Origin: Acidobacteriota bacterium
Lineage (GTDB): Bacteria > Acidobacteriota > Terriglobia > 20CM-2-55-15
Length of the DNA: 64,000 nt
Assembly: GCA_022821145.1 (NCBI GenBank)
Contig: JAJEEE010000057.1
Span: 4,213-68,212 of the forward strand
Direction of reading: 5' to 3'
Shown here in pieces: positions 50,828-64,000 of this stretch (positions are counted from its first letter, which is position 1; each line of letters opens with the position of its first letter). The notes beneath the pieces were generated by a model. That model ran no database searches. It saw only the letters and a list, made by a program, of their open reading frames with translations, and was not told the DNA's origin. The position numbers were made by a program, and so were the translations under genes.

Positions 50828-51052
50828 GGCGGCGCACGATTGTACCCCGCCGGCGGATCGTAGTCCCACCGTTCGCCGCGTTTGGGCGTACCGTTCCGAT
50901 GCGGTAGTCTTGAAGACGCCGCCGGCGGCGTCCACGACTCCCTCTCCGACGACGAACCGCCCTTCGCGCGTTGTCCGGCGGGCGACGAGCCCAAACCCAG
51001 GCGGGATGCACTGAACGCGTTCGAATCCCGCCGCTTTCAACGAGGTTCCACG

Positions 51053-52072
51053 ATGAGATTCAAGATCATGGACACCGAAGTCGAGGTGCCGTCCTTCCGG
51101 GAGACGCACATTTCCCGGCGGCCGATCCTGATCGGACTGGCCGCCGTCCTCGCTTTGGTCGTCTTGCTGGGCACGGTCTACCAGATCGCCCCCGAGGAAG
51201 CCGGCGTCGTGCTCCGGCTCGGACGCTACGTCCGCACGACGGATCCCGGGCTGCGTTTCAAGTTTCCGCTGATCGAACAGGTCACCAAGGTTCCCGTCGA
51301 GCGCCAGCTCAAGCAGGAGTTCGGGTTCCGCACCGAAGAGGCCGGCGTTCAGAGCCGTTTCTCGACCGCCGGACTCGAAGACGAATCGCTGATGCTGACC
51401 GGCGATCTGAACGTCGCCGTCGTCGAGTGGATCGTGCAATACCGGGTGGCCGATCCCTACGACTACCTGTTCCGTGTGCGCAACGTCGAAGAGACGTTCC
51501 GCGACATGAACGAGGCGGTCGTCCGGGCCGTCGTGGGCGACCGCACCGTGACCGAAGTCCTGACCATCGGACGGCAGGACATCGAGGTGACGGCGCAAGC
51601 GGCGCTGCAGGAGCTCTGCGACCAGTATCAGAACGGGATCCGCATCGAGCAGATCGTGCTGCAGGACGTGAACCCGCCCGACCCGGTCAAGCCGTCGTGG
51701 GACGAGGTGAACCAGGCGCAGCAGCAGCGCGACCGGATGATCAACGAGGCGCTGACCGACTACAACAGCGTGATCCCGCGCGCGCGGGGCGAAGCCGAGC
51801 AGACGATTCTCCAGGCCGAGGGATACGCCCTGAACCGGGTGAACCGGTCCGAGGGCGACGCGGCGCGGTTCACGGCCCTCTACGAAGAGTACCGGCAGGC
51901 GCCGGAAGTGACGCGCCGCCGCATGTACCTGGAAACCATGAGCACGACGATGGCAAGGGTTTCCCACAAGGTCATTCTGGACAGTGACGCCCAGGGCGTC
52001 CTGCCGCTGCTGCCGATCGACGGCATCGGGAACCGGCTGGCCAGCAACGCGCCCAACCAGGGAGGCAACTGA
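51053..52072 (+). CDS. hflK: FtsH protease modulator HflK
   Basis: SPFH domain; MLTGDLNV, ARGEA, YRQAPEVTRRRMYLETM. Confidence 0.93.
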   Translation: MRFKIMDTEVEVPSFRETHISRRPILIGLAAVLALVVLLGTVYQIAPEEAGVVLRLGRYVRTTDPGLRFKFPLIEQVTKVPVERQLKQEFGFRTEEAGVQSRFSTAGLEDESLMLTGDLNVAVVEWIVQYRVADPYDYLFRVRNVEETFRDMNEAVVRAVVGDRTVTEVLTIGRQDIEVTAQAALQELCDQYQNGIRIEQIVLQDVNPPDPVKPSWDEVNQAQQQRDRMINEALTDYNSVIPRARGEAEQTILQAEGYALNRVNRSEGDAARFTALYEEYRQAPEVTRRRMYLETMSTTMARVSHKVILDSDAQGVLPLLPIDGIGNRLASNAPNQGGN

Positions 52073-53007
52073 TGAGGAACACCGGCACGAAAATACTCGC
52101 CGCGGCGGCCGCGGTCGTCGCCTTGATCGTCCTTTCCAGCGCTCTGTACATCGTCGACGAAACGCAGCAGGTCATCGTCACGCAGTTCGGCGAGCCCGTG
52201 GGCGACGCCGTGAACACCCCGGGTCTGCACGTCAAGTTGCCGTTCATCCAGCGGGCCAACTATTTCGACAAGCGGTTCCTGGAATGGGACGGCGACGCGA
52301 ACCAGGTGCCGACGCGCGACAAGCGGTTCATCTGGGTGGACGCCTACGCGCGCTGGCGGATCAGCAATCCGCGGACGTACCTGGAACGGCTTCGCGGCGA
52401 CGAAATCACCGCGCAGTCCCGGCTGGACGACATCCTGGACGGCGAGACGCGCAACTCGGTGGCCCGCAACGACCTGGTCGAGGTCGTGCGGACGACCAAC
52501 CGCGTGCCCGCCACGACGGAGAGCGACGAGGAGGAAACCGGCACGCTCGAGGACATCACGACGGGACGCGCCGACATCGCCGAGGTCATCCGGCAGACGG
52601 CGGCCCCGCGGCTGGCCGAGCTGGGGATCGAGCTGGTCGATTTCCGCTTCAAGCGGATCAACTACGTCGCCGAGGTGCAGCAGGACGTGTTCGCCCGGAT
52701 GATCGCCGAACGGCAGCGGATCGCGCAGCAATACCGCTCCGAGGGCGAGGGCGAGGCGGCTCGGATTCGGGGGGAACGGGAACGCGACCTCCAGCAGATC
52801 CAGTCGGAAGCGTACCGGCAGGCCGAGGAAACCCGGGGCGTCGCCGACGCGGCCGCGACGGGCATCTACGCCGAGGCCTACGATCGCGATCCCGCGTTCT
52901 ACGCTTTCCTGAAGAGCATGGAGACGTTCCAGACGGCGATCGACCCGAACACGACGCTGGTGCTGACGACGGACGGCGAACTGCTCCGTTATCTGGACAA
53001 CCCGTAG
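52072..53007 (+). CDS. hflC: FtsH protease modulator HflC
   Basis: VTQFGEP, PGLHVKLPF, RMIAER, FYAFLKSMETF. Confidence 0.93.
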   Translation: MRNTGTKILAAAAAVVALIVLSSALYIVDETQQVIVTQFGEPVGDAVNTPGLHVKLPFIQRANYFDKRFLEWDGDANQVPTRDKRFIWVDAYARWRISNPRTYLERLRGDEITAQSRLDDILDGETRNSVARNDLVEVVRTTNRVPATTESDEEETGTLEDITTGRADIAEVIRQTAAPRLAELGIELVDFRFKRINYVAEVQQDVFARMIAERQRIAQQYRSEGEGEAARIRGERERDLQQIQSEAYRQAEETRGVADAAATGIYAEAYDRDPAFYAFLKSMETFQTAIDPNTTLVLTTDGELLRYLDNP

Positions 53008-53106
53008 TCGAAGCGCCCGGCGGCGGGCGTCCGGCGCGGCGAATGGCCGTCGACCGGACGCTCCGCCGGGGTCCGGAATCGAACGGCTCGTCCGACGACG
53101 ACTCCG

Positions 53107-56100
53107 CTACGTGTCGCGTATCGAGACGTCGATGACGCAAACCGAAATCTTGCGCCTTTCGTCATCGGAGAGCGTACCCGTCAGACGCTCTTCGAGTTCG
53201 CCGGCGCTCTTCGGCGGCGGCCCCTCGCCCGGCGTCGGCCGGCAACGTTCCGTGTGTCCGAACCAGAAAACGAGATAGATGCCGTAACCGTGCGCGCCCG
53301 AATCCCGGGTGTATTTGGCGATCAACTGCGTCCGGACCGCGCTCCAAAGATCTCGATGGCAGCTCTTCTTGATCTCCACGGGGACGTTGAAGCCATCGAA
53401 GGAGACACGAATGTCCGACCTCTTGTCATCGGCGTATCGTGCCTCGGAATGCGCGTTGATGTTCAACGGGCCTATTCGAGTCTTCAAAACGGACAGGAGG
53501 GCGTCGCGGCACGCGTCTTCCGGTTTCGGGTCCAGAGGCCGATTGTAGGAGTCCACGTTCCAATACTGCCGCCAGTCCGACGTGTCCCCGTCCCGTATAT
53601 TTCTCGAAATCTCGCGCAAATGCTCGAGGGTCAGCGCGGCCAAATCGGCGGCGTTGGTCGGTGATTGGTTGTCCAGCACGGCAATCACGTTTTCGACATC
53701 GAACCGGCGGAATTCCGCTTCGCGTCGCGCGGCGTTTTGCCGATACGCCGCAACGTCGAGTTGGAATCGCCATGCGCGCAGGCTGTCGTCGGACGACAGT
53801 GCCTCGAGTGCCTCCGAGGCCGCCCGGGACGGGATGGCGGCAAGGTGGCTGATGTACGTCTCGACAGTCAAACCCGTGGCCATGGCCGACGTGTGCCCCC
53901 GGCGTTCCGCGGAATCGGATCCATTGGACTCCGGATGACGAGAAAGAAGTCTGCAGGAGCCGCCAATCAGCCGAATCAAGATCGACAAGACCGGAACGTC
54001 GAAAGCAATTGTTAGCCGTGGGGACAATCCGTTAACGGCAAAAAAGTCCACGAGATGCCCGATCCGGCGTTCGTTCCCGGCCACGCAGAACTCCAGTTCC
54101 TCCAGATACCGCTCCGGCGAAACCGTCAGCCCGGCGGCGAGCCAGTTGACGCGCTGTCCGACGCTCATGCTTCGGTGCGCGAGCCTGCGGTCGATCAACT
54201 CAAGTAAACGCTTCTCCTGACCGTCCCGCCGAACCGATCCGAGCAGAACGCTCAAGTTCCAGAGTTGCCGATTCGAACAGCGCACGGGAAACGCTTCCAG
54301 CAAGGCCAGTGACGCCAAGTCCGAGACGGCGGCATGGTCCTCGTCGAGCAATTCATGGACGCCGGGAAAATAGTCCGCGCCGCTGCGCATCCTGGACGCG
54401 GTGGATCGAATCAGGACGTCGGCAACCACATGGGGACGAGACGCCAGCAACGGCGAGAACCACGGCGGCGTCCGTTGCGCGGGATGCCGCGTATACGGCC
54501 GCATGGGAACGGTGTAGTGGATGGCAACAGCCACCCGGATCTGTGCTTCGTCGAGCAAAAGCTTCCCGTGCGGGGCGTTCCGAAACTGCTCGTCGAGTCC
54601 GGCCATGATCGGAAGCGCCAAGTGGTGCGTCCGACTCCGGGCGTTGAGCTCCAGAATCTCGGCCAACGTGGGGGCATCGCTCCTGGCGATCGATCCGCGA
54701 AAGCCTTCCAGAACAGCGGCAATCAGGCTCTCGTCGCCACCCAGCAGGTCACCCAATCGTTCCGTGCCGGTACGGCCCACAATGTCGACGAACTCTCCGA
54801 AGTAGATCCTGGCCAACTCGTGAAGTAGTTCCGGAGACACCCGACCTTCGCGGAACGCCGCCTCGCGAGACTTCACCCGGTCTTGCCAGTCCCGCCGTAT
54901 TTGCGCGTCCCGGGTCTGCTCTGTCAGCTCGTAGCGTTTTCTCCATTCACCGACCCCGGCACGAAACCCTTCGAATTCGGCCCACTCCTTGTGGAACAGG
55001 TTCAGCAGGTACGTGTTGCCGGCCAGCTTGCGTTCGACGGCTTCGCGAGAAAGATCCCCATCATGAATACGCTGGTTCAGGCAACGCGCGACCTCGCTCA
55101 TGAACCAGGCTGCGGCGTCGCCGTCTTCGGCGGCGATGGCTCGGTCGAGGCACCAGGATCCGTAATCCGGCGTTTTGGCTCCGAATAGACGGTCTTCGAC
55201 CGCATACATGCAGCGGCGAAAATCCCCAGAGCGAACGCTTTGCCCCACGCCGACGTCGATGATCGTCTTCAACTCGCCGGGATGGCTGTCCAACCAGGAT
55301 CTCAAGTATTCGGCGCCGTCTTTGTCCGTTCGAAGTTCGGGATCGGACACGATCCCCAGCCAATCGAAAAGCCGTGTGGTATCGACTCTGTCTAGAGATG
55401 TCTCCAGGTAACGTTTCAAGAGGACTACGACGATCGGTCGAAGAAAGGCCGGGTTCCCCCGAGATCCCACGAATACGGGTTTCAGTCGATCGAACTGCCG
55501 GGCAATCGCGTCGAGGATTTCGGCCAGTTGGGCGTTCGTCGACGTTTCCGGAACCCGACCGGTCCAAAACCGCACATAACTGGCAACGAGCGAAGCATTC
55601 TTTGGCGTCCGCAAGTACCGGATGCTGTCGGATACCGACAGATGCGCGGGATACAACTCGGTCAACAGACAGCCCAGCAACTCATCGTCGGGATCCGATA
55701 CCCGTTCGGCATCCACATCCGCGAGCAGCGCCTCGAGTTCAGCGAAAACCTTTGCGTCGTCTGTTCCGTTCCGGACGAAGACCTGGACCGCACGCCGTCT
55801 GATCTCGGACTGCCATGCGCCGTCTCTGACGATGTCCACCATGACGTCGGCGAGTCCGAGGACCGGCGTTCCATGCGCGAGCGCTTCGACAAGGAACCGG
55901 ACCAAGGCCTGACGCGCGTCGTCCCTCGCCGGATCGTTCAGAAATCGTCGAAAGACGTCCGCCATGTCCGGCGTTGCAAGGTCGCCCAGCCGAGGATCCA
56001 ACTGGATCGTCCCGCCAAGCCAGGGATTCCTCTGTGTGTCCCGGCACAGGCAATCCAGTACTCGACGCTTGTCTTCGGTCGAGAAACCTCGGACGTCTCC

Positions 56101-57219
56101 GTAGAGGACGGTTCCGAGCGGATCGCGCGTGATCAGTTCCGCGCGGCCGCGTCGACTATGCGCAGCAAGCCAAGCGGCCAGACCGCGCAACTCCGACACC
56201 GGGACACCGTCATGGCCGGTCATCAGGGCCAGAACACGTCCGACCGGCAGACCCCGGTCGATTAGCGCGGCCAAGTGCCGGGCACCGAGAAACTCGGCGA
56301 TCTGGCGGTGAACCGGGACCGCGCAACCGTCGCTAGGCGCCTCGAACAGCTTGGTGCCGAGCGCGTGCCGCAGGATGTCACGGTCTTCGCCGGGTATCGT
56401 TTCCGATCCCAGGTATTCGCTATCGCTCTCGCCGCCGACAAGGGCGAATCCGGCGCTGCCGGTCAGCAGTTGCACCGCGCAAAGCCACCCCGCGGCGTCC
56501 ATCAGATCGGAAGTATCGAAGCGATTCCGGGTCGCGATCCGGTGTTCCTCGTTGTGCTCGCGGAGCAACGTGCGGCACGCCAGATCGAACGTCTGCAAGC
56601 GCGACTCCGGCCAAACGCCGTCCGAAACGGCCTTCGCCAGCATCTCCAGGCTTTGGGGATTCGACAGAAGAGTATCGATTCCCCTCTCGCGGGCCGAGCT
56701 GACCAATTCATCCGCGTCTTCGATGCCGAAGTTGGCCCGCAGGATCTCGCGAATGTCGGCATCGGAGAGTGGGTTGAGGCGCAGGACCGTCACCTTTTTG
56801 TCCCGCGATACGTTCTTCAGATGATCTCGGTCGTTGGCTCCGAACCAGTCCGCCTCGCGGCAGGACAAGCGGAACTTCGGGCGGTCCAGTTGGTCGAGCC
56901 GGGTGCGGATGTTGTCGAGCGGCGTGCGACCGTCCTCGGACCCGGCCCGCGTTTCGTCGAGCCCGTCGATGAACAGTGTCGTGTCGCGCCATTCGGCTCG
57001 TTCGTCGAACGTAGTGAAGTCGCGCGCAGTGACGTACGGCCCACCCGTTGACTCGGCTTCGCTTCGGAATGCCGTCGTCTTGCCGGCGCCGGGAGCGCCG
57101 AGTAGCACGCACGCATCCATTTCCCTGAAATCGTCCAACGGCCGGGGCGTGTTGCCCGGATCACCGCTGTAGGCGCCTCTCTCGATCACGGTGCACGTGC
57201 GTGGAACGATGCGCTTCAT
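53107..57219 (-). CDS. NACHT/STAND-like NTPase with a C-terminal PD-(D/E)xK-like domain (1370 aa)
   Basis: Walker A GAPGAGKT, Walker B LFIDGLDE, LSCR, NPQSL, HRQIAEFL; C-terminal RSDIRV...VPVEIK...QLIAKY...GIYLVFWFG. The ATG overlaps the upstream stop codon. Confidence 0.78.
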   Translation of the reverse strand: MKRIVPRTCTVIERGAYSGDPGNTPRPLDDFREMDACVLLGAPGAGKTTAFRSEAESTGGPYVTARDFTTFDERAEWRDTTLFIDGLDETRAGSEDGRTPLDNIRTRLDQLDRPKFRLSCREADWFGANDRDHLKNVSRDKKVTVLRLNPLSDADIREILRANFGIEDADELVSSARERGIDTLLSNPQSLEMLAKAVSDGVWPESRLQTFDLACRTLLREHNEEHRIATRNRFDTSDLMDAAGWLCAVQLLTGSAGFALVGGESDSEYLGSETIPGEDRDILRHALGTKLFEAPSDGCAVPVHRQIAEFLGARHLAALIDRGLPVGRVLALMTGHDGVPVSELRGLAAWLAAHSRRGRAELITRDPLGTVLYGDVRGFSTEDKRRVLDCLCRDTQRNPWLGGTIQLDPRLGDLATPDMADVFRRFLNDPARDDARQALVRFLVEALAHGTPVLGLADVMVDIVRDGAWQSEIRRRAVQVFVRNGTDDAKVFAELEALLADVDAERVSDPDDELLGCLLTELYPAHLSVSDSIRYLRTPKNASLVASYVRFWTGRVPETSTNAQLAEILDAIARQFDRLKPVFVGSRGNPAFLRPIVVVLLKRYLETSLDRVDTTRLFDWLGIVSDPELRTDKDGAEYLRSWLDSHPGELKTIIDVGVGQSVRSGDFRRCMYAVEDRLFGAKTPDYGSWCLDRAIAAEDGDAAAWFMSEVARCLNQRIHDGDLSREAVERKLAGNTYLLNLFHKEWAEFEGFRAGVGEWRKRYELTEQTRDAQIRRDWQDRVKSREAAFREGRVSPELLHELARIYFGEFVDIVGRTGTERLGDLLGGDESLIAAVLEGFRGSIARSDAPTLAEILELNARSRTHHLALPIMAGLDEQFRNAPHGKLLLDEAQIRVAVAIHYTVPMRPYTRHPAQRTPPWFSPLLASRPHVVADVLIRSTASRMRSGADYFPGVHELLDEDHAAVSDLASLALLEAFPVRCSNRQLWNLSVLLGSVRRDGQEKRLLELIDRRLAHRSMSVGQRVNWLAAGLTVSPERYLEELEFCVAGNERRIGHLVDFFAVNGLSPRLTIAFDVPVLSILIRLIGGSCRLLSRHPESNGSDSAERRGHTSAMATGLTVETYISHLAAIPSRAASEALEALSSDDSLRAWRFQLDVAAYRQNAARREAEFRRFDVENVIAVLDNQSPTNAADLAALTLEHLREISRNIRDGDTSDWRQYWNVDSYNRPLDPKPEDACRDALLSVLKTRIGPLNINAHSEARYADDKRSDIRVSFDGFNVPVEIKKSCHRDLWSAVRTQLIAKYTRDSGAHGYGIYLVFWFGHTERCRPTPGEGPPPKSAGELEERLTGTLSDDERRKISVCVIDVSIRDT

Positions 57220-58493
57220 GGTTCGTCGAACCACTCCCCGGCCGGGATGGACAGGAACTCCGGAAGCGGCCGTCCGCCCTCCCCGACGAGTATCGAGAAG
57301 GTGACGCCGAACCGCTGTCCGAATTCCGTCAGCCCACTCACGCTCGCTTTCCGCAAACCGCTCTTGACCTCGAACGCGGCCAACTTCTTCCCGCGTTGCA
57401 GAACGAAGTCGACCTCGTGATTGTCGTCCCGCCAGAAGTAGAGCCGGTCTCCCGCCGACTTGGTGTTGAACAGATGCGCGCCGACCGCGCTTTCGACCAG
57501 CCGGCCCCAGAAGCTTCGGTCGGACCGCGCCTCTTCGAACGTGTATCCGGACTGGGCGGCCATCAGAGCGGTATTCAGCACGTTGAGCTTGGGACTCGAG
57601 GCCCGGCGGCGTTGCGCGCGGCCGGCATACTTGGCGAGACCGGCGATCAGGCCGGCGTCCGACAGCAGGTCGAGGTAACGCGCCAGGGTGGTCGTGTTAC
57701 CCGCGTCCTGAAGTTGCCCGAGCATCTTGTTGTAGGACAGGATCTGGCCGGAATAGTCGGAGCCGAGATCGAACAATCGCTTCAGCAGCGCCGGCTTGTC
57801 CACTCGCTGCATCGCCAGAATGTCGTGCTCGATATTGGGTTCGACCAGCGATTCCACGATGTATTGGCGCCACCGATCCTGCGCGGGAACGAGCGGCGCC
57901 GCGCCCGGGTAGCCTCCGAAGTAGATGTAGGTCGGCAGATCGAAGTCGAACGCGGCCGCCATCTCGGCGAATGACCAATGGGAGAGATGAATGGTCTCGT
58001 AGCGGCCGGCCAGACTCTCGATCATGCCCTTTTGCGTGAGCAGCGGGGCCGAGCCCATCAGAATCACGTGCAGTGGACGTTCGTGACGCCGGTCCGCATC
58101 CGACAACCCCTTGACCGCCTCCGACCAGTTCGGGATCTTCTGGATCTCGTCGATCGCCAGAACGAAGCCCCGTTCCGAACGGTCGGCTTCCATTCGAGCC
58201 TGCTCCCAGTGACGGACCAGCCAACGCACGTCCCGCTCGCCGGCTAGGCGGCCGGGCGCGTCGCCGGGGTACACGTTGGTACTCGTTTCACTTCCTGGGA
58301 ACGGTGGGAGCGTGGCAGAATCCGGCTCATCGACGGACACGTAGCGGTTCGGCCGGTCGATCCGGGCCAGCACCTGGCAGACAAGCGTCGTCTTGCCCGT
58401 CTGACGCGGCCCGGTGACGACGATCAACCGTCGCGGGGCCTCCCCCAGACGGCTGATGAGCGTCGACTTCTGTGCGCGTTCATAGGCGCTCAT
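57216..58493 (-). CDS. AAA_14-family ATPase with a C-terminal DUF4143 domain
   Basis: GPRQTGKTT, AIDEIQ, GGYPG, ESAVGAHL, EVDFV...FEVKSG. Confidence 0.92.
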   Translation of the reverse strand: MSAYERAQKSTLISRLGEAPRRLIVVTGPRQTGKTTLVCQVLARIDRPNRYVSVDEPDSATLPPFPGSETSTNVYPGDAPGRLAGERDVRWLVRHWEQARMEADRSERGFVLAIDEIQKIPNWSEAVKGLSDADRRHERPLHVILMGSAPLLTQKGMIESLAGRYETIHLSHWSFAEMAAAFDFDLPTYIYFGGYPGAAPLVPAQDRWRQYIVESLVEPNIEHDILAMQRVDKPALLKRLFDLGSDYSGQILSYNKMLGQLQDAGNTTTLARYLDLLSDAGLIAGLAKYAGRAQRRRASSPKLNVLNTALMAAQSGYTFEEARSDRSFWGRLVESAVGAHLFNTKSAGDRLYFWRDDNHEVDFVLQRGKKLAAFEVKSGLRKASVSGLTEFGQRFGVTFSILVGEGGRPLPEFLSIPAGEWFDEP

Positions 58494-58501
58494 TCCAAGA
58501 T

Positions 58502-58539
58502 GATGCGTCTATTGAGTAAATGTTCTCAATAGACGTATC
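58502..58539. promoter_or_regulatory. 15-bp inverted repeat (operator) over the promoter of the ATPase island
   Basis: GATGCGTCTATTGAG-N8-CTCAATAGACGTATC (one mismatch). On the minus strand, TTGAGA-N18-CATCAT lies 6 nt before the ATG. Confidence 0.7.
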
Positions 58540-58632
58540 GGATGAACTTCAGCGCGACGGCTGCTCGCGGTCAACGAAGCGGCATGGCCGCCCGGTCACC
58601 GGAAACGCTGGGGCCCGACGGTCGGCGGCCCA

Positions 58633-59031
58633 TCACTCCTGGATCGCGAAGCTGTCCGATGCCAGGGTCCGCCCGCCGGCGTCGCGGATCTCGACCGTCC
58701 ACTCGCCGGTCCATTCCGGCAACAGCGTCTTCCGGCTCCACGTCCTCCAGGAGGGGCTGCCCACGTCGAGGGGCACGACCCACTCCAGGTCCTTGTATCT
58801 CCAGACATGTTCGATGGTCGTCCCGGACAGGCCGATCGCGCGTGTCCACGCAACGACGTGCTCCTGGCCGGCCGGAAACGTCCGCTTCGGATCGACGGGT
58901 TGCCGGTCGACAACGTCCCCGGCAAGGACCAGCTCGACGCGGGCCTCCGGTTCTTGCGCGGCCGATGCGACGGCGACGCACGCCAACATCGCGACCGCGA
59001 ACCCCGAACGACGAAACGCTCTTTCCTTCAT
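58633..59031 (-). CDS. Exported DUF2914-like protein
   Basis: Signal peptide; IEHVW, SPSWRTWSRK, GEWTVEI. Confidence 0.8.
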   Translation of the reverse strand: MKERAFRRSGFAVAMLACVAVASAAQEPEARVELVLAGDVVDRQPVDPKRTFPAGQEHVVAWTRAIGLSGTTIEHVWRYKDLEWVVPLDVGSPSWRTWSRKTLLPEWTGEWTVEIRDAGGRTLASDSFAIQE

Positions 59032-59084
59032 GGCAACCTCCCGTTGTGCGCGGGCGGGTGAATTCCCTTCCCGGTCCGTCGCGT

Positions 59085-59100
59085 TGCACGCACCGTTCCA
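59085..59100 (-). promoter_or_regulatory. Possible sigma54 -24/-12 promoter
   Basis: TGGAACG-GTGC-GTGCA with GG-N10-GC spacing, upstream of the DUF2914 gene. Confidence 0.35.
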
Positions 59101-59240
59101 TTCCGGCAAGTCGTTGAACAGGCGTGGGATGGCGGAATAGTCCGCTTTCCGGAAAGAACCCGAAAACGGGAATAATTCCCTACTCCGGGTTCGGCGCGTA
59201 TGTCAGAATTGGCCGAACGCTTTCGACCGAGGAATCGACG

Positions 59241-60797
59241 ATGCGGATTCCACAGCTCGCTCTGCCGTTTTTCGTCGCGACCGTCGCGACGGGCGCCGCG
59301 TTCGGAGCCCAGGACACACACCCCCTGATCGAAGCGTCGGAGAACGGCGACCTCCCGAGGGTCCGCACGCTGCTGGCCGAGGGCGCCGACCCCGACGCCC
59401 GGCGCATCGACGGCACGACGAGTCTCCATTGGGCCGTCCACTCCGATCACGCCGAAACGGCCGTGCTTCTGCTCGAGGCCGGCGCCGACGCGCGGGCCGG
59501 GGACCGTTACGGGATCACGCCGCTGCACCTGGCCGCCGTCAACGGCAACGCGGCGCTGATCGCACGTCTGCTCGAGGCCGGCGCGGACGCCAACGCCGTG
59601 GCGCCCACGGGAGACACCGCGCTGATGACGGCGACGCGCACGGGCCAACCGGACGCCGTCAGCGTGCTGCTCGAGGCCGGCGCCCGCGTCGACGCGCGCG
59701 ACGCGGAGTTCCAACAGACCGCGTTGATGCTGGCGGTGCGCGAGAACCACCCCCGCGTAGCGGAGATGCTGATCGCGAGCGGCGCCGACGTCGACGCTCG
59801 GACGCGCGTGGGGGCGACGCCCGAGTTCCAGCCGCCGTGCAAGGGCACCGGGTGCGGCTCCGAGGGCGTGGGCATCAACCGCGGCGGGTTGCCCGACCGG
59901 GGACGGCGCGCCGAGACCCGGGGCGGCATGACGCCGCTGCTCTACGCGGCGCGCGAGGGGCGGATCGAGGCCGCGCGGCTCTTGATCGCGGCGGGCGCCG
60001 ACGTGGAGCGGGCCGAGGCCAACGGCATCCGGCCCCTGCTGATGTCCGTCCTCAACAACCGGCTCGACGTCGCGCGCCTGCTCCTGGACAGCGGCGTGGA
60101 CCTCAACGCCGACGACTTCTGGGGCCGCCGGCCGCTTTGGGCCGCCGTGGAGTACCGCAACCTGGACATGAACAACCGCGACCAGGACAGCCCCACCCAC
60201 AACGGCGTCGACCGGGCGCCGATCCTGGAGTTCATCCGCGTCCTGCTCGACGGCGGGGCCGATCCGAACGCGCGGACGCGGGAAGTGCCGCCGTCCCGGC
60301 GTTGGCTCTACTCGCTGGGCGACGTCTCCTGGGTGGACTTCACCGGCCAGACGCCGTTCCTTCGGGCCGCACTGTCGGGGGACACGGTCGCGATGCGGCT
60401 GCTGCTGGAATACGGCGCCGATCCGAATCTGCCGACATTCGCCGGCACGACGCCGCTGATGGCCGCCTCCGGGGTCAACTGGGTCGTCGCCCAGACCTAC
60501 ACGGAATCCGGCGCGGCGGTGATCGAAGCGGTCCGGCTGTGCCTGGAGCTCGGCGCGGACGTCAACGCCACGAACTCGATGGGCCTGTCGGCGCTGCTGG
60601 GGGCCGCCAACCGGGGCTCCAACGACATCATTCGCATCCTGGTCGACAACGGCGCACACCTGGACGTGGTGGACCGGGAGGGGCGGACGGCCATCCGGTG
60701 GGCGGAAGGCGTCTTCCTGGCCGCGGTCGGCGCGGAGCGCAAACCCCAGACGATCGCGCTGCTCGAGGAGTTGATGGCCGCGACGGCGGCGCCCTGA
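59241..60797 (+). CDS. Exported ankyrin-repeat protein, system 2
   Basis: Signal peptide; repeated GxTxLHxA/GxTPLxxA motifs; paralog of the ankyrin part of 41703..43544. Confidence 0.9.
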   Translation: MRIPQLALPFFVATVATGAAFGAQDTHPLIEASENGDLPRVRTLLAEGADPDARRIDGTTSLHWAVHSDHAETAVLLLEAGADARAGDRYGITPLHLAAVNGNAALIARLLEAGADANAVAPTGDTALMTATRTGQPDAVSVLLEAGARVDARDAEFQQTALMLAVRENHPRVAEMLIASGADVDARTRVGATPEFQPPCKGTGCGSEGVGINRGGLPDRGRRAETRGGMTPLLYAAREGRIEAARLLIAAGADVERAEANGIRPLLMSVLNNRLDVARLLLDSGVDLNADDFWGRRPLWAAVEYRNLDMNNRDQDSPTHNGVDRAPILEFIRVLLDGGADPNARTREVPPSRRWLYSLGDVSWVDFTGQTPFLRAALSGDTVAMRLLLEYGADPNLPTFAGTTPLMAASGVNWVVAQTYTESGAAVIEAVRLCLELGADVNATNSMGLSALLGAANRGSNDIIRILVDNGAHLDVVDREGRTAIRWAEGVFLAAVGAERKPQTIALLEELMAATAAP

Positions 60798-60801
60798 GTT
60801 C

Positions 60802-63084
60802 ATGATCTACGCGTTGTCCAGCTTCCTGGTCCCGGCTCTCGCGCTCGGCGCGGCCCAGGAAGGGGGGAGACTCGAGCCGGGGGAGCTGCTGGAGGCGTAT
60901 TGCGTCACCTGCCATAACGCGGCGCTCCTCGCGGGCGAACTCGACCTGAACGCGCTCGATCCGGACCGCGTGGGCGACGACGCGGAGACGTGGGAACGCG
61001 TGGTGCGGAAGCTGCGGACGGGCCTGATGCCGCCGGCCGGCGCCCGACGGCCCGACCGCGCGGCGTTGGACGCATTCGCCGCGGGCCTGGAGGACGCGCT
61101 CGATCGCGCCGCGTCGCTCCGGCCCAACCCCGGGGCGCCGGTGCTGCACCGCCTCAACCGGGCCGAGTACGCCAACGCCGTGCGGGATCTTCTGGACCTG
61201 CCGGTCGACGCGGCGGCGCTTCTGCCCGCCGACGATTCCAGCAACGGCTTCGACAACGTCGCCGCCGCCCTGAACGTGTCCCCGGCCCTGATGCAGGCCT
61301 ATGTCGCGGCGGCGGGCAAGATCAGCCGGATGGCCGTGGGCGACGCGACCATCAGCCCGGCGCGCACGACGTACCGCCCCGCCCGCGGCCTCTCGCAGGA
61401 CAACCACATCGAGGGTCTGGGCCTGGGAACGCGCGGCGGCATGGCCGTCGACCACGTGTTTCCGCTCGACGCCGAGTACGTCTTCGATATCGGCCGGTCC
61501 GGCGGCGGGTTCGGCCAAGCCACGACGGGCGGCTCCGAAGCGGTCGAGATCGCCATCGACGGCGAGCGCGTCGCGCTGGCCGCCCCGGACGGGCTTCGGG
61601 GCATCCGGCTGCGCGTAGAGGCGGGTCCGCGCCGGGTCACCGCGGCCGTCGTCTCGACGAGAAGCGCCGTGGGCGTCGACGACCTTTACTCCCGGCTGGC
61701 GGTCAGCCCCGGCGTCGCCAACGTCTCGATCTTCGGACCCTTCGACCCGACGGGTCCCGGCGACACGCCGAGCCGCCGGCGCATATTCTCGTGCCGGCCG
61801 GCGGCGGAAGCCGGGGAACGCGCCTGCGCGATGGAGATCCTGGGCGCGCTGGCCCGACGCGCGTTCCGGCGGGCCGTCGACGACGCGGATCCCAAGATGG
61901 AGACGCTGATGGGGTTCTTCGAGTCCGGGCGCGAGCTCCGCGGATTCGAGACCGGAATCCAATACGGGGTGGCGCGCATCCTGGTCGATCCCGAGTTCGT
62001 CTTCCGGTTCGAAGACGAACCGTCGGCACTGGCCGACGGCCGCGTCTACGAGCTGGACGGCCTGGAACTGGCCACGCGGCTCTCGTTCTTTCTCTGGAGC
62101 AGCATCCCGGACGCGAGGCTTCTCGACGCCGCCGCCGCGGGGCGGCTCTCGGATCCCGAGGCGCTGGAAGCCGAAGCGCGGCGCATGCTGGCCGATCGGC
62201 GCGCCGGCGCGCTGGTCGAGAACTTCGCCAGCCAGTGGCTGCTGCTCCGGCAACTGGATACGGTGGCGCCCGCGTCCAACGACTTCGACGGCAACCTGCG
62301 CCGCTCGTTCCGCCGCGAGACCGAGATGCTCTTCGAGAGCATCCTGCGGGAAGACCGCAGCATCATGGACCTGATCGACGCCGACTACACGTTCATCGAC
62401 GAACGCCTGGCGCGGCACTACGGCGTCCCGAACGTCCGCGGAAGCCGGTTTCGGCGCGTCAGCGTCGAGGACGAGCACCGCCGGGGCCTGCTGGGGCACG
62501 GCAGCGTCCTTACGGTCACCTCGGCCGTCAACCGGACGTCGCCGGTCAAGCGCGGTCACTGGATCCTGGAGAACCTGCTCGGCGCGACGGTGCCGCTGCC
62601 GCCGCCCGGAGTGGAATCGAATCTGGACGAGAGCGCGGACGCGGGGCCGGCGCCAGCCTCCATGCGCCGGCGCCTGGAACGCCATCGAGCGGACCCGGCG
62701 TGCGCAAGCTGCCACGCCATCATGGACCCGATCGGTTTCGCGCTGGAAAACTTTGACTCCGTCGGCAAATGGCGCGATGCTGACGGTGGCGCCCCGATCG
62801 ACGCGAGCGGCGAGATGGCCGACGGAACGGCGATCGACGGGCCGGCGAGCCTGCGGCGCGCGCTCATGGATCGGAGGGACGCGTTCGCGGCCGTCGCCGT
62901 CGAGAAGCTCCTGACCTACGCGCTGGGACGCACGGTGGATCACGACGACATGCCCGCCGTGCGGTCCATCGTCCGGGGAGCGGCCTCCGACGACTACCGC
63001 CTCTCGTCGCTGGTGCTGGGCGTGGTCGCAAGCGACGCGTTTCGATCGAAGATCAAGGTGTCCGACGAGGCTCGGGATCGATAG
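60802..63084 (+). CDS. Exported DUF1587/1595/1592/1588/1585 diheme protein, system 2
   Basis: CVTCH plus MPP, RLNRAEY, GFDN, LATRLSFFLWSSIPD, TSPVKRGHWIL, CASCH, TYALGR. Confidence 0.92.
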   Translation: MIYALSSFLVPALALGAAQEGGRLEPGELLEAYCVTCHNAALLAGELDLNALDPDRVGDDAETWERVVRKLRTGLMPPAGARRPDRAALDAFAAGLEDALDRAASLRPNPGAPVLHRLNRAEYANAVRDLLDLPVDAAALLPADDSSNGFDNVAAALNVSPALMQAYVAAAGKISRMAVGDATISPARTTYRPARGLSQDNHIEGLGLGTRGGMAVDHVFPLDAEYVFDIGRSGGGFGQATTGGSEAVEIAIDGERVALAAPDGLRGIRLRVEAGPRRVTAAVVSTRSAVGVDDLYSRLAVSPGVANVSIFGPFDPTGPGDTPSRRRIFSCRPAAEAGERACAMEILGALARRAFRRAVDDADPKMETLMGFFESGRELRGFETGIQYGVARILVDPEFVFRFEDEPSALADGRVYELDGLELATRLSFFLWSSIPDARLLDAAAAGRLSDPEALEAEARRMLADRRAGALVENFASQWLLLRQLDTVAPASNDFDGNLRRSFRRETEMLFESILREDRSIMDLIDADYTFIDERLARHYGVPNVRGSRFRRVSVEDEHRRGLLGHGSVLTVTSAVNRTSPVKRGHWILENLLGATVPLPPPGVESNLDESADAGPAPASMRRRLERHRADPACASCHAIMDPIGFALENFDSVGKWRDADGGAPIDASGEMADGTAIDGPASLRRALMDRRDAFAAVAVEKLLTYALGRTVDHDDMPAVRSIVRGAASDDYRLSSLVLGVVASDAFRSKIKVSDEARDR

Positions 63085-63095
63085 AGGAGACGACG

Positions 63096-64000
63096 ATGTT
63101 CATCACCCGGAAACACCTTTCCCGCCGCACGTTCCTCCGCGGCACGGGCGCGGTCGTGGCGCTGCCGTTCCTGGAATCCATGGTCCCGGCGCAGACGCCG
63201 CTGGCCCGGACGGCGGCCAGTCCGCGAACCCGGCTGGGGTGCATCTACATTCCTCACGGCGCGACCATGGACAAGTGGACACCCCTGGGCGAGGGCCGCG
63301 ACTTCGCGTTCTCGGAGATCCTCCAGCCGCTGGAACCATTCCGGGAACGCGTGTGCGTCGTCAGCGACCTGGCGCACGCGCAGGTCGCGCCCTGGGAAGG
63401 CGAGGACACCGGCGGCGCCGAGAACCACGTCCGGGCCGCGGCGGTCTTCCTGAGCGGCGCGCACCCGGTGAAGGGCGACACGGCCGTCGTCGGACCGTCC
63501 GTCGACCAGGTTGCCGCCGCCCACGCGGGGCAGGACACGCCGCTGCCGTCCATCGAGCTGTCGATCGAGGCCGTGGGCCTGAACTGCGATTCGGGTTTCA
63601 CCTGCGCCTACCGCAACACGCTGTCCTGGAAGTCCGAAACGCTCCCGCTGCCGATGGAGAACAACCCCCAGATCGTGTTCGAGCGGCTCTTCGGCGACGG
63701 CAGCACGGACGCGGAGCGCCGCGAACGGCGGCGGCTGTCCCAAAGCCTGCTCGATTCCGTCCGGACCAAGGCGGCGTCGCTGGGGCGCGACCTTCCCGCC
63801 CCCGACCGCGTCCGGCTCGATGAGTACCTGGAACAGGTCCGCGAGATCGAGCGCCGGGTGCTGCTGTTCGACGAGCGGCTCTCGACCGGCCTGGAGCTGC
63901 CGGAGGCCCCCGTCGGCGTGCCGAGCGATTTCGAGGAGCACCTGGACCTGATGTTCGACCTGCAGGTCCTGGCGTACCGAGCCGAGATCACGCGCATCTC
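63096..64000 (+). CDS. DUF1552 Tat-exported protein, system 2 (runs off the window end)
   Basis: MFITRKHLSRRTFLRG, CDSGFTC, ENNPQIVFERLFG; absent from the ORF track because no stop falls in the window. Confidence 0.9.
   Translation, partial: MFITRKHLSRRTFLRGTGAVVALPFLESMVPAQTPLARTAASPRTRLGCIYIPHGATMDKWTPLGEGRDFAFSEILQPLEPFRERVCVVSDLAHAQVAPWEGEDTGGAENHVRAAAVFLSGAHPVKGDTAVVGPSVDQVAAAHAGQDTPLPSIELSIEAVGLNCDSGFTCAYRNTLSWKSETLPLPMENNPQIVFERLFGDGSTDAERRERRRLSQSLLDSVRTKAASLGRDLPAPDRVRLDEYLEQVREIERRVLLFDERLSTGLELPEAPVGVPSDFEEHLDLMFDLQVLAYRAEITRI

Follow-up and report, generated by a model that had tools for sequence, protein, structure and literature searches.

The window analysed here is a stretch of 64,000 nucleotides from an Acidobacteriota bacterium (GenBank assembly GCA_022821145.1, contig JAJEEE010000057.1, positions 4,213 to 68,212), and the subject is a pair of adjoining genes on its minus strand (Table 1). 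The larger encodes a NACHT NTPase with a long helical region and a putative nuclease at the C-terminal end. The smaller, which lies directly upstream and is called the partner gene below, encodes an ATPase-nuclease of the type listed in PADLOC as defense candidate PDC-S01. A palindrome precedes the pair, and the two genes with their upstream region are all that is contained in an inserted segment. The locus is probably a horizontally acquired two-gene antiphage cassette, in which the large gene is an Erebus/EruA homolog in the Avs10 family of proteins resembling nucleotide-binding leucine-rich repeat receptors (NLRs). The large protein and its architecture are already known, and the family has been named and tested for antiphage activity. 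The PDC-S01 gene combined with a palindromic control site as a mobile cassette is the only part that looks undescribed.

Table 1. Features of the two-gene locus, with positions given in the window (aa, amino acids)
Feature	Position	Strand	Remarks
Erebus/EruA-like NACHT sensor-nuclease gene	53107..57219	-	1370 aa; stop codon 53107-53109; from open reading frame, translation, NF058535 and homologs
NACHT NTPase module	56140..57123	-	roughly residues 33-360, boundaries approximate
Helical middle region, presumed sensor	53578..56139	-	roughly residues 361-1214, boundaries approximate; modeled parts helical
C-terminal PD-(D/E)xK nuclease domain (predicted)	53110..53577	-	roughly residues 1215-1370; from motif and Foldseek
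Partner gene, AAA_14 ATPase + DUF4143 (PD-(D/E)xK), PADLOC candidate PDC-S01	57216..58493	-	425 aa; TGA overlaps ATG of the NACHT gene
Inverted repeat GATGCGTCTATTGAG-N8-CTCAATAGACGTATC, candidate operator	58502..58539		38 bp; begins 9 bp upstream of the partner ATG
Whole inserted cassette	53073..58641		5,569 bp; GC 62.7% vs 69.9% in the flanks; empty site in a same-genus genome

The large gene is the longest open reading frame of the region, extending from 53107 to 57234 on the minus strand when counted from the first GTG, with a translation of 1375 aa. The ATG at 57219 is the likely start codon, because it overlaps the TGA of the upstream gene ('...gaa cca TGA') as a shared ATGA; residue numbers for the large protein are those of the resulting 1370 aa version. 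The GC content at codon positions 1/2/3 is 0.66/0.47/0.74. In DNA of ~70% GC, as in the window, the difference between the third position (0.74) and the second (0.47) indicates a real gene. More than 3,107 homologs of the protein are found, and its conservation was scored in an alignment of 120 full-length homologs.

The sequence GAPGAGKT at residues 41–48 agrees with the Walker A pattern GxxxxGK[ST]. As Walker A begins at residue 41, no effector domain fits at the N-terminus. Kibby et al. define NACHT by the signature D[GAS]hDE in Walker B, and residues 85–89, DGLDE, have this form. Positions G41, P43, G44, G46, K47, D85, L87, D88 and E89 are invariant in the 120 homologs. An AlphaFold2 (AF2) model of residues 1–560, built on a 49-sequence alignment, has a mean predicted local distance difference test score (pLDDT) of 80.9. 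Its best Foldseek match is NLRC4 (4kxf, E-value = 1.7e-8), followed by NAIP/NLRC4, NLRP5, NLRP3 and Avs4 (E-value = 8.3e-5). The modeled fold consists of nucleotide-binding, helical and winged-helix domains arranged as in animal NLRs.

The middle region is almost entirely helical in the AF2 models (residues ~150–560 and 1110–1215), which together cover residues 1–560 and 1110–1370 of 1370. Its conservation is also the lowest in the protein (mean column identity 0.54–0.6 vs ~0.8 in the NACHT and nuclease parts), as would fit the role of a sensor. Two related copies that retain the partner gene are without sensor residues ~626–1100 (L077) and ~521–772 (L067), respectively, in the numbering of the window protein; they represent either variants with a shorter sensor or genes in decay.

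At the C-terminal end, D1269, E1282 and K1284 (E1282-x-K1284), Q1298 and Y1303 are invariant in the 120 homologs. The motif is also kept in solo EruA copies, i.e. those lacking the partner gene, and in two of three Hyo-like copies examined. In the AF2 model of residues 1110–1370 (pLDDT 84.3), an alpha/beta core follows a bundle of helices. When this model is compared with the PDB by Foldseek, PD-(D/E)xK nucleases make up all of the top 13 matches and nearly all of the 50 listed; they include Can2, PspGI, Can1, Cdn1, Hjc, Mus81, EcoRV, SwaI and HindIII. Can2 is the best match (E-value = 3.6e-3, Foldseek probability 0.96) and none has an E-value below 1e-3. Nucleases of the Can2/Can1/Hjc type, which are the closest in structure, share only 8–19% identity with the domain at weak E-values, thus the likeness is one of fold class and not of family. 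Motif and fold jointly make a good case for a PD-(D/E)xK nuclease domain, as predicted from the model.

A preliminary description of this DNA had proposed a protein that begins with a NACHT NTPase, continues with a sensor and ends in a nuclease, and open reading frame, motifs and models agree that the gene is real and built in this way. Its placement of Walker A within the first ~45 residues, with an N-terminal effector excluded, is confirmed by GAPGAGKT at 41–48. The putative C-terminal domain with a restriction-endonuclease fold is likewise borne out by the invariant D..ExK..Q residues and the nuclease matches. Of the ~900 aa of helical sequence that it described, part is checked: the models bear it out for residues ~150–560 and 1110–1215. 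Sound as it was on the architecture of the large protein, the description overlooked the coupled upstream gene.

The large protein matches the NCBIfam model NF058535, 'NACHT domain-containing antiphage protein EruA', with 957.5 bits (E-value = 1.6e-287). The alignment joins profile positions 11–1318 of 1318 (1308 positions) to residues 27–1371 of the GTG translation, or ~22–1366 in the ATG numbering. Homology to Erebus/EruA is thus full-length, and the order of NACHT, helical sensor and C-terminal D..ExK nuclease is the same, with the catalytic residues also present in solo copies; on these sequence grounds the protein appears to belong to the EruA/Erebus family in the broad sense. The HyoA model NF058534 gives a weak match of 179 bits over residues 138–1329, far under its cut-off of 1200, as expected of a distant full-length homolog of Hypnos/HyoA.

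The equivalog cut-off of NF058535 is 1000 bits. Solo copies score 1318 bits (L108), 1190 bits (L112, on a Bradyrhizobium plasmid), 1055 bits (L109) and 776 bits (L111, on a Pantoea plasmid), and copies paired with the partner gene score 1051 bits (L084), 1028 bits (L066, from Thauera), 972 bits (L001), 967 bits (from the congener G406) and 957 bits (the window copy). In a FastTree phylogeny of 87 sequences, from which L112 is absent, the paired copies cluster in a single large group, with the solo copies basal to it on long branches and the Hyo-like copies as outgroup; the exact rooting is unsure because the solo branches are long. The window protein lies inside a group bounded by copies that score above the cut-off. 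Such copies are found both basal to the window clade (the solo copies L108 and L109) and inside the paired group (L066 and L084), thus the EruA cut-off is not a clade boundary. The window copy is ~30–36% identical to the solo EruA copies and differs from them in that its clade carries the PDC-S01 partner and a conserved palindrome.

The name 'Avs10 (Erebus/Hypnos/bNACHT64)' is defined in a Nature 2026 paper (PMC13581612) and its preprint, with reference to Kibby 2023 and van den Berg 2024. A STAND (signal transduction ATPase with numerous domains) NTPase is likewise joined to a sensor, made of repeats or helices, and to a nuclease effector in Avs1-4 (Gao et al. 2022) and in typical bNACHTs, e.g. 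bNACHT25. However, their effector is N-terminal, whereas in the window protein Walker A begins at residue 41 and the nuclease forms the last ~155 residues; the arrangement of Avs1-4, with an N-terminal effector and a C-terminal tetratricopeptide repeat (TPR) sensor, is not found. An effector at the extreme C-terminus was noted in some bacterial NACHT proteins by Kibby et al. (2022), who argue that in space it can lie where an N-terminal effector would.

The partner shows Pfam matches to AAA_14 (E-value = 6.8e-23, 81.5 bits) and DUF4143 (E-value = 1.9e-28, 99.7 bits), both above the gathering score. It matches the PADLOC model PDLC04791 (PDC-S01) over the full length, with 528.7 bits and residues 4–422 aligned to positions 2–394 of 395. 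DUF4143/COG1373 is counted among the PD-(D/E)xK families (Steczkiewicz et al. 2012). Residues conserved in at least 95% of 82 partner sequences comprise Walker A (G28–T36), D115–E116, E360-x-D362 and E375-x-K377. The segment 'TLARYLDLLSDAGLIAGL' looks like a winged helix. PDC-S01 is otherwise known as a single-gene candidate only, but here it has a fixed place ahead of an NLR-like gene.

This association extends well beyond the window. A scan of one genome per species, many of them metagenome-assembled genomes (MAGs), gave 80 related loci in at least 12 phyla: Latescibacterota, Pseudomonadota, Nitrospirota, Gemmatimonadota, Acidobacteriota, Chloroflexota, Verrucomicrobiota, Binatota, Tectimicrobiota, Nitrospinota, Spirochaetota and Thermodesulfobacteriota. 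By tblastn, a partner homolog of 53–93% identity immediately precedes the large gene, in the same orientation, in 78 of the 80 loci. The junction between the genes is a 4-nt overlap in 55 of these 78 and a 1-nt overlap in 6. Pairwise distances of the two proteins are correlated with r = 0.90 (mirror-tree; Mantel 0/999), the partner being more conserved than the sensor (mean distance 0.37 vs 0.57). Partner and sensor genes co-evolve.

The candidate operator upstream of the pair overlaps the sole sigma-70-like site in positions 52900–59200. Of 76 loci, 34 have a strict TTGAG-N4-12-CTCAA core in the 150 bp preceding the partner, where 0.0009 would be expected per 150 nt from its rate in the rest of the same loci. 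This core is typically situated about 35 bp from the partner start, and the conserved palindrome about 35–45 bp ahead of the pair. A looser search shows a TGAGTAA..TTACTCA core in further loci. Only the two genes travel with the operator, therefore it must be bound by one of their products or by a host factor. Intrinsic terminators were not found beyond chance expectation.

The DUF4143 partner gene is absent near all four solo copies whose neighborhoods were examined. L108 is preceded by an MFS transporter gene, and L109 by PIN and HTH-M78 genes with a TrwC relaxase adjoining; the Pantoea plasmid copy is flanked by ppl and an Abi gene, and the Bradyrhizobium plasmid copy has a SIR2 gene close by. 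According to the tree, the partner has also been lost secondarily twice inside the paired clade (L057 and L062). The existence of solo EruA copies, which give the highest score against the model, and the two losses would suit two independent single-gene defense systems, one Erebus-like and one PDC-S01, standing side by side in a defense island, as would the PADLOC listing of PDC-S01 as a candidate on its own. This is nevertheless unlikely. The partner as a mere independent neighbor is disfavored by the pairing in 78 of 80 loci on the same strand and across so many phyla, by the retention of the 4-nt overlap and by the correlated distance matrices, and the inserted segment comprises just these two genes with a single control region upstream. 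As a separate observation, a Longimicrobiales MAG (L069:10303-13679) carries the pair and, after it, a distant DUF4143 gene (27% identity), then a second partner (50%) with a second Eru-like gene, an arrangement of tandem cassettes.

The cassette is a discrete insertion. In the same-genus genome G407 (contig C116, locus L115), 25 bp are found in place of positions 53073–58641, and the contig is collinear with the window on both sides at 87–90% DNA identity. Both carry genes for Pirin, FG-GAP, two SPFH proteins, a small protein, ankyrin and DUF1592 in this order. A second congener, G406, has a different allele at another locus (sensor 60% identical, partner 78%). In a third, G404, an Eru-like gene has been reduced to its last ~190 codons (L114, C5:97418-98002), which contain a TAA stop, as the remnant of a cassette that has been lost. 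Distribution among relatives is patchy, with a match in 7 of 41, and the cassette tree is strongly at odds with the organism phylogeny. The insertion, the empty site, the alleles elsewhere, the remnant and the 7 of 41 together are the behavior of an accessory, frequently exchanged defense gene.

The same mobility could be taken to mean a mainly selfish or addiction module, whose partner and palindrome serve the movement or maintenance of the 5.6-kb element and not phage sensing. The insertion is clean and without an integrase or transposase, the cassette tree is discordant, and the combination of an AAA+ ATPase with a PD-(D/E)xK nuclease recalls transposition proteins, by analogy only. Such a module is very improbable, however, as no terminal repeats or target-site duplication were found at the ends of the insertion, the palindrome is situated at promoter distance from the first gene and not at an end of the element, and antiphage activity has been measured for members of the Erebus/Avs10 family (PMC13581612). 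No tRNA is found in the window.

The proposal in the preliminary description of a separate, hitherto undescribed STAND class, with a central sensor and the nuclease as its tail, is scarcely credible: although the large protein gives nothing significant in the local Pfam copy and PADLOC (AAA_22, E-value = 0.15; mad8, E-value = 0.0014) and neither its sequence nor a 49-sequence profile retrieves a relative from the PDB, the EruA model covers it end to end, the family is published as Erebus/Hypnos/bNACHT64 = Avs10, C-terminal effectors in bNACHTs have been on record since 2022, and PF28130 is listed on every homolog in precomputed annotation. NF058535 and the Avs10 literature thus supply the match to an already described system that the description had itself set against its proposal. 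The local Pfam copy is without a PF28130 model, therefore this family apparently entered Pfam very recently.

Several points weigh against an antiphage cassette built around an Avs10 family member. The score of the large protein falls 4% short of the equivalog cut-off, and for this reason it is not called EruA in the strict sense of NCBI. That EruA is Erebus, and hence linked to Avs10, is suggested by the pattern of the names (Erebus to Eru, Hypnos to Hyo) and by both being NACHT antiphage proteins; literature searches for the names 'EruA' and 'HyoA' gave unrelated uses only. The AF2 models cover only residues 1–560 and 1110–1370. The Foldseek E-values of the nuclease domain are weak even at best, and the fold match alone is modest. 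To our knowledge no tested family member carries the partner; the tested Avs10/Erebus proteins apparently work as single genes, and the partner may be dispensable. With regard to the pair, the accessible literature, supplementary tables aside, contains no paper linking DUF4143 or PDC-S01 with NACHT, and in the same literature the fixed PDC-S01 partner, the operator and the minimal cassette are not mentioned, although an earlier description is possible.

An antiphage function of the window copy is suggested by the reports on family members, and the defense genes beside the solo plasmid homologs, the patchy distribution and the empty site speak for it as well. Avs10 senses the phage major capsid protein via a sensor described as TPR-like, and cell death is abolished when its effector domains are mutated or deleted (PMC13581612). 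By analogy, the sensor of the window protein would bind a conserved phage protein, most likely the major capsid protein, and this binding would release autoinhibition. The NACHT module would then drive NTP-dependent oligomerization, which may bring the nuclease tails together, and the DNA would be degraded and the infection aborted. The translationally coupled partner is a fixed companion in this clade and most likely works with the sensor; it may set expression through the palindrome, or act as a co-effector or helper. It is conceivable, though rather doubtful, that the two form a two-protein immune receptor, somewhat like the sensor/helper NLR pairs of plants. The PDC-S01-type protein, with its AAA+, winged helix-turn-helix and PD-(D/E)xK parts, would then be an obligate partner that regulates its own expression via the palindrome and joins or licenses the activated oligomer.

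The large protein alone is one more member of a named and tested family. DUF4143/COG1373 ATPase-nucleases are among the commonest uncharacterized prokaryotic proteins, with a place in defense only as the candidate PDC-S01. A clade that pairs a DUF4143 gene with an NLR-like sensor provides a testable handle on the function of the partner, and it likewise offers a way to study the regulation or assistance of bacterial NLRs. Within this clade the two genes have a common operator, evolve together and are transferred across at least 12 phyla as a minimal unit of 5.6 kb. A two-protein receptor, if true, would be the first case in which a function is assigned to a branch of COG1373/DUF4143, a very large family.

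On the plus strand at 50882–53007, a tandem of SPFH/Band 7 genes encoding 396 and 311 aa converges on the end of the cassette. Both genes lie outside the insert, because they are conserved at the empty site of the congener. At the other end, a small gene at 58633–59030 on the minus strand encodes 132 aa with a signal-peptide-like N-terminus (MKERAFRRSGFAVAMLACVAVASAAQ), and its last few codons differ from those of the congener exactly at the right-hand insertion joint. The opposite-strand frame at 58633–59030 shows no Pfam match.

Further along, positions 59124–60797 of the plus strand encode a 557 aa ankyrin-repeat protein, which has 14–19 paralogs (E-value = 1e-40 or better) in each of four same-genus genomes. 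An ankyrin expansion of such size is typical of host-associated symbionts, e.g. of sponge or coral. This gene is followed at 60802–63998 (plus strand) by a DUF1592/DUF1588/DUF1587/DUF1585/DUF1595 protein with a cytochrome-c-like N-terminus and then by a DUF1552 protein with a twin-arginine translocation signal, the two forming the 'planctomycete-type' gene pair.

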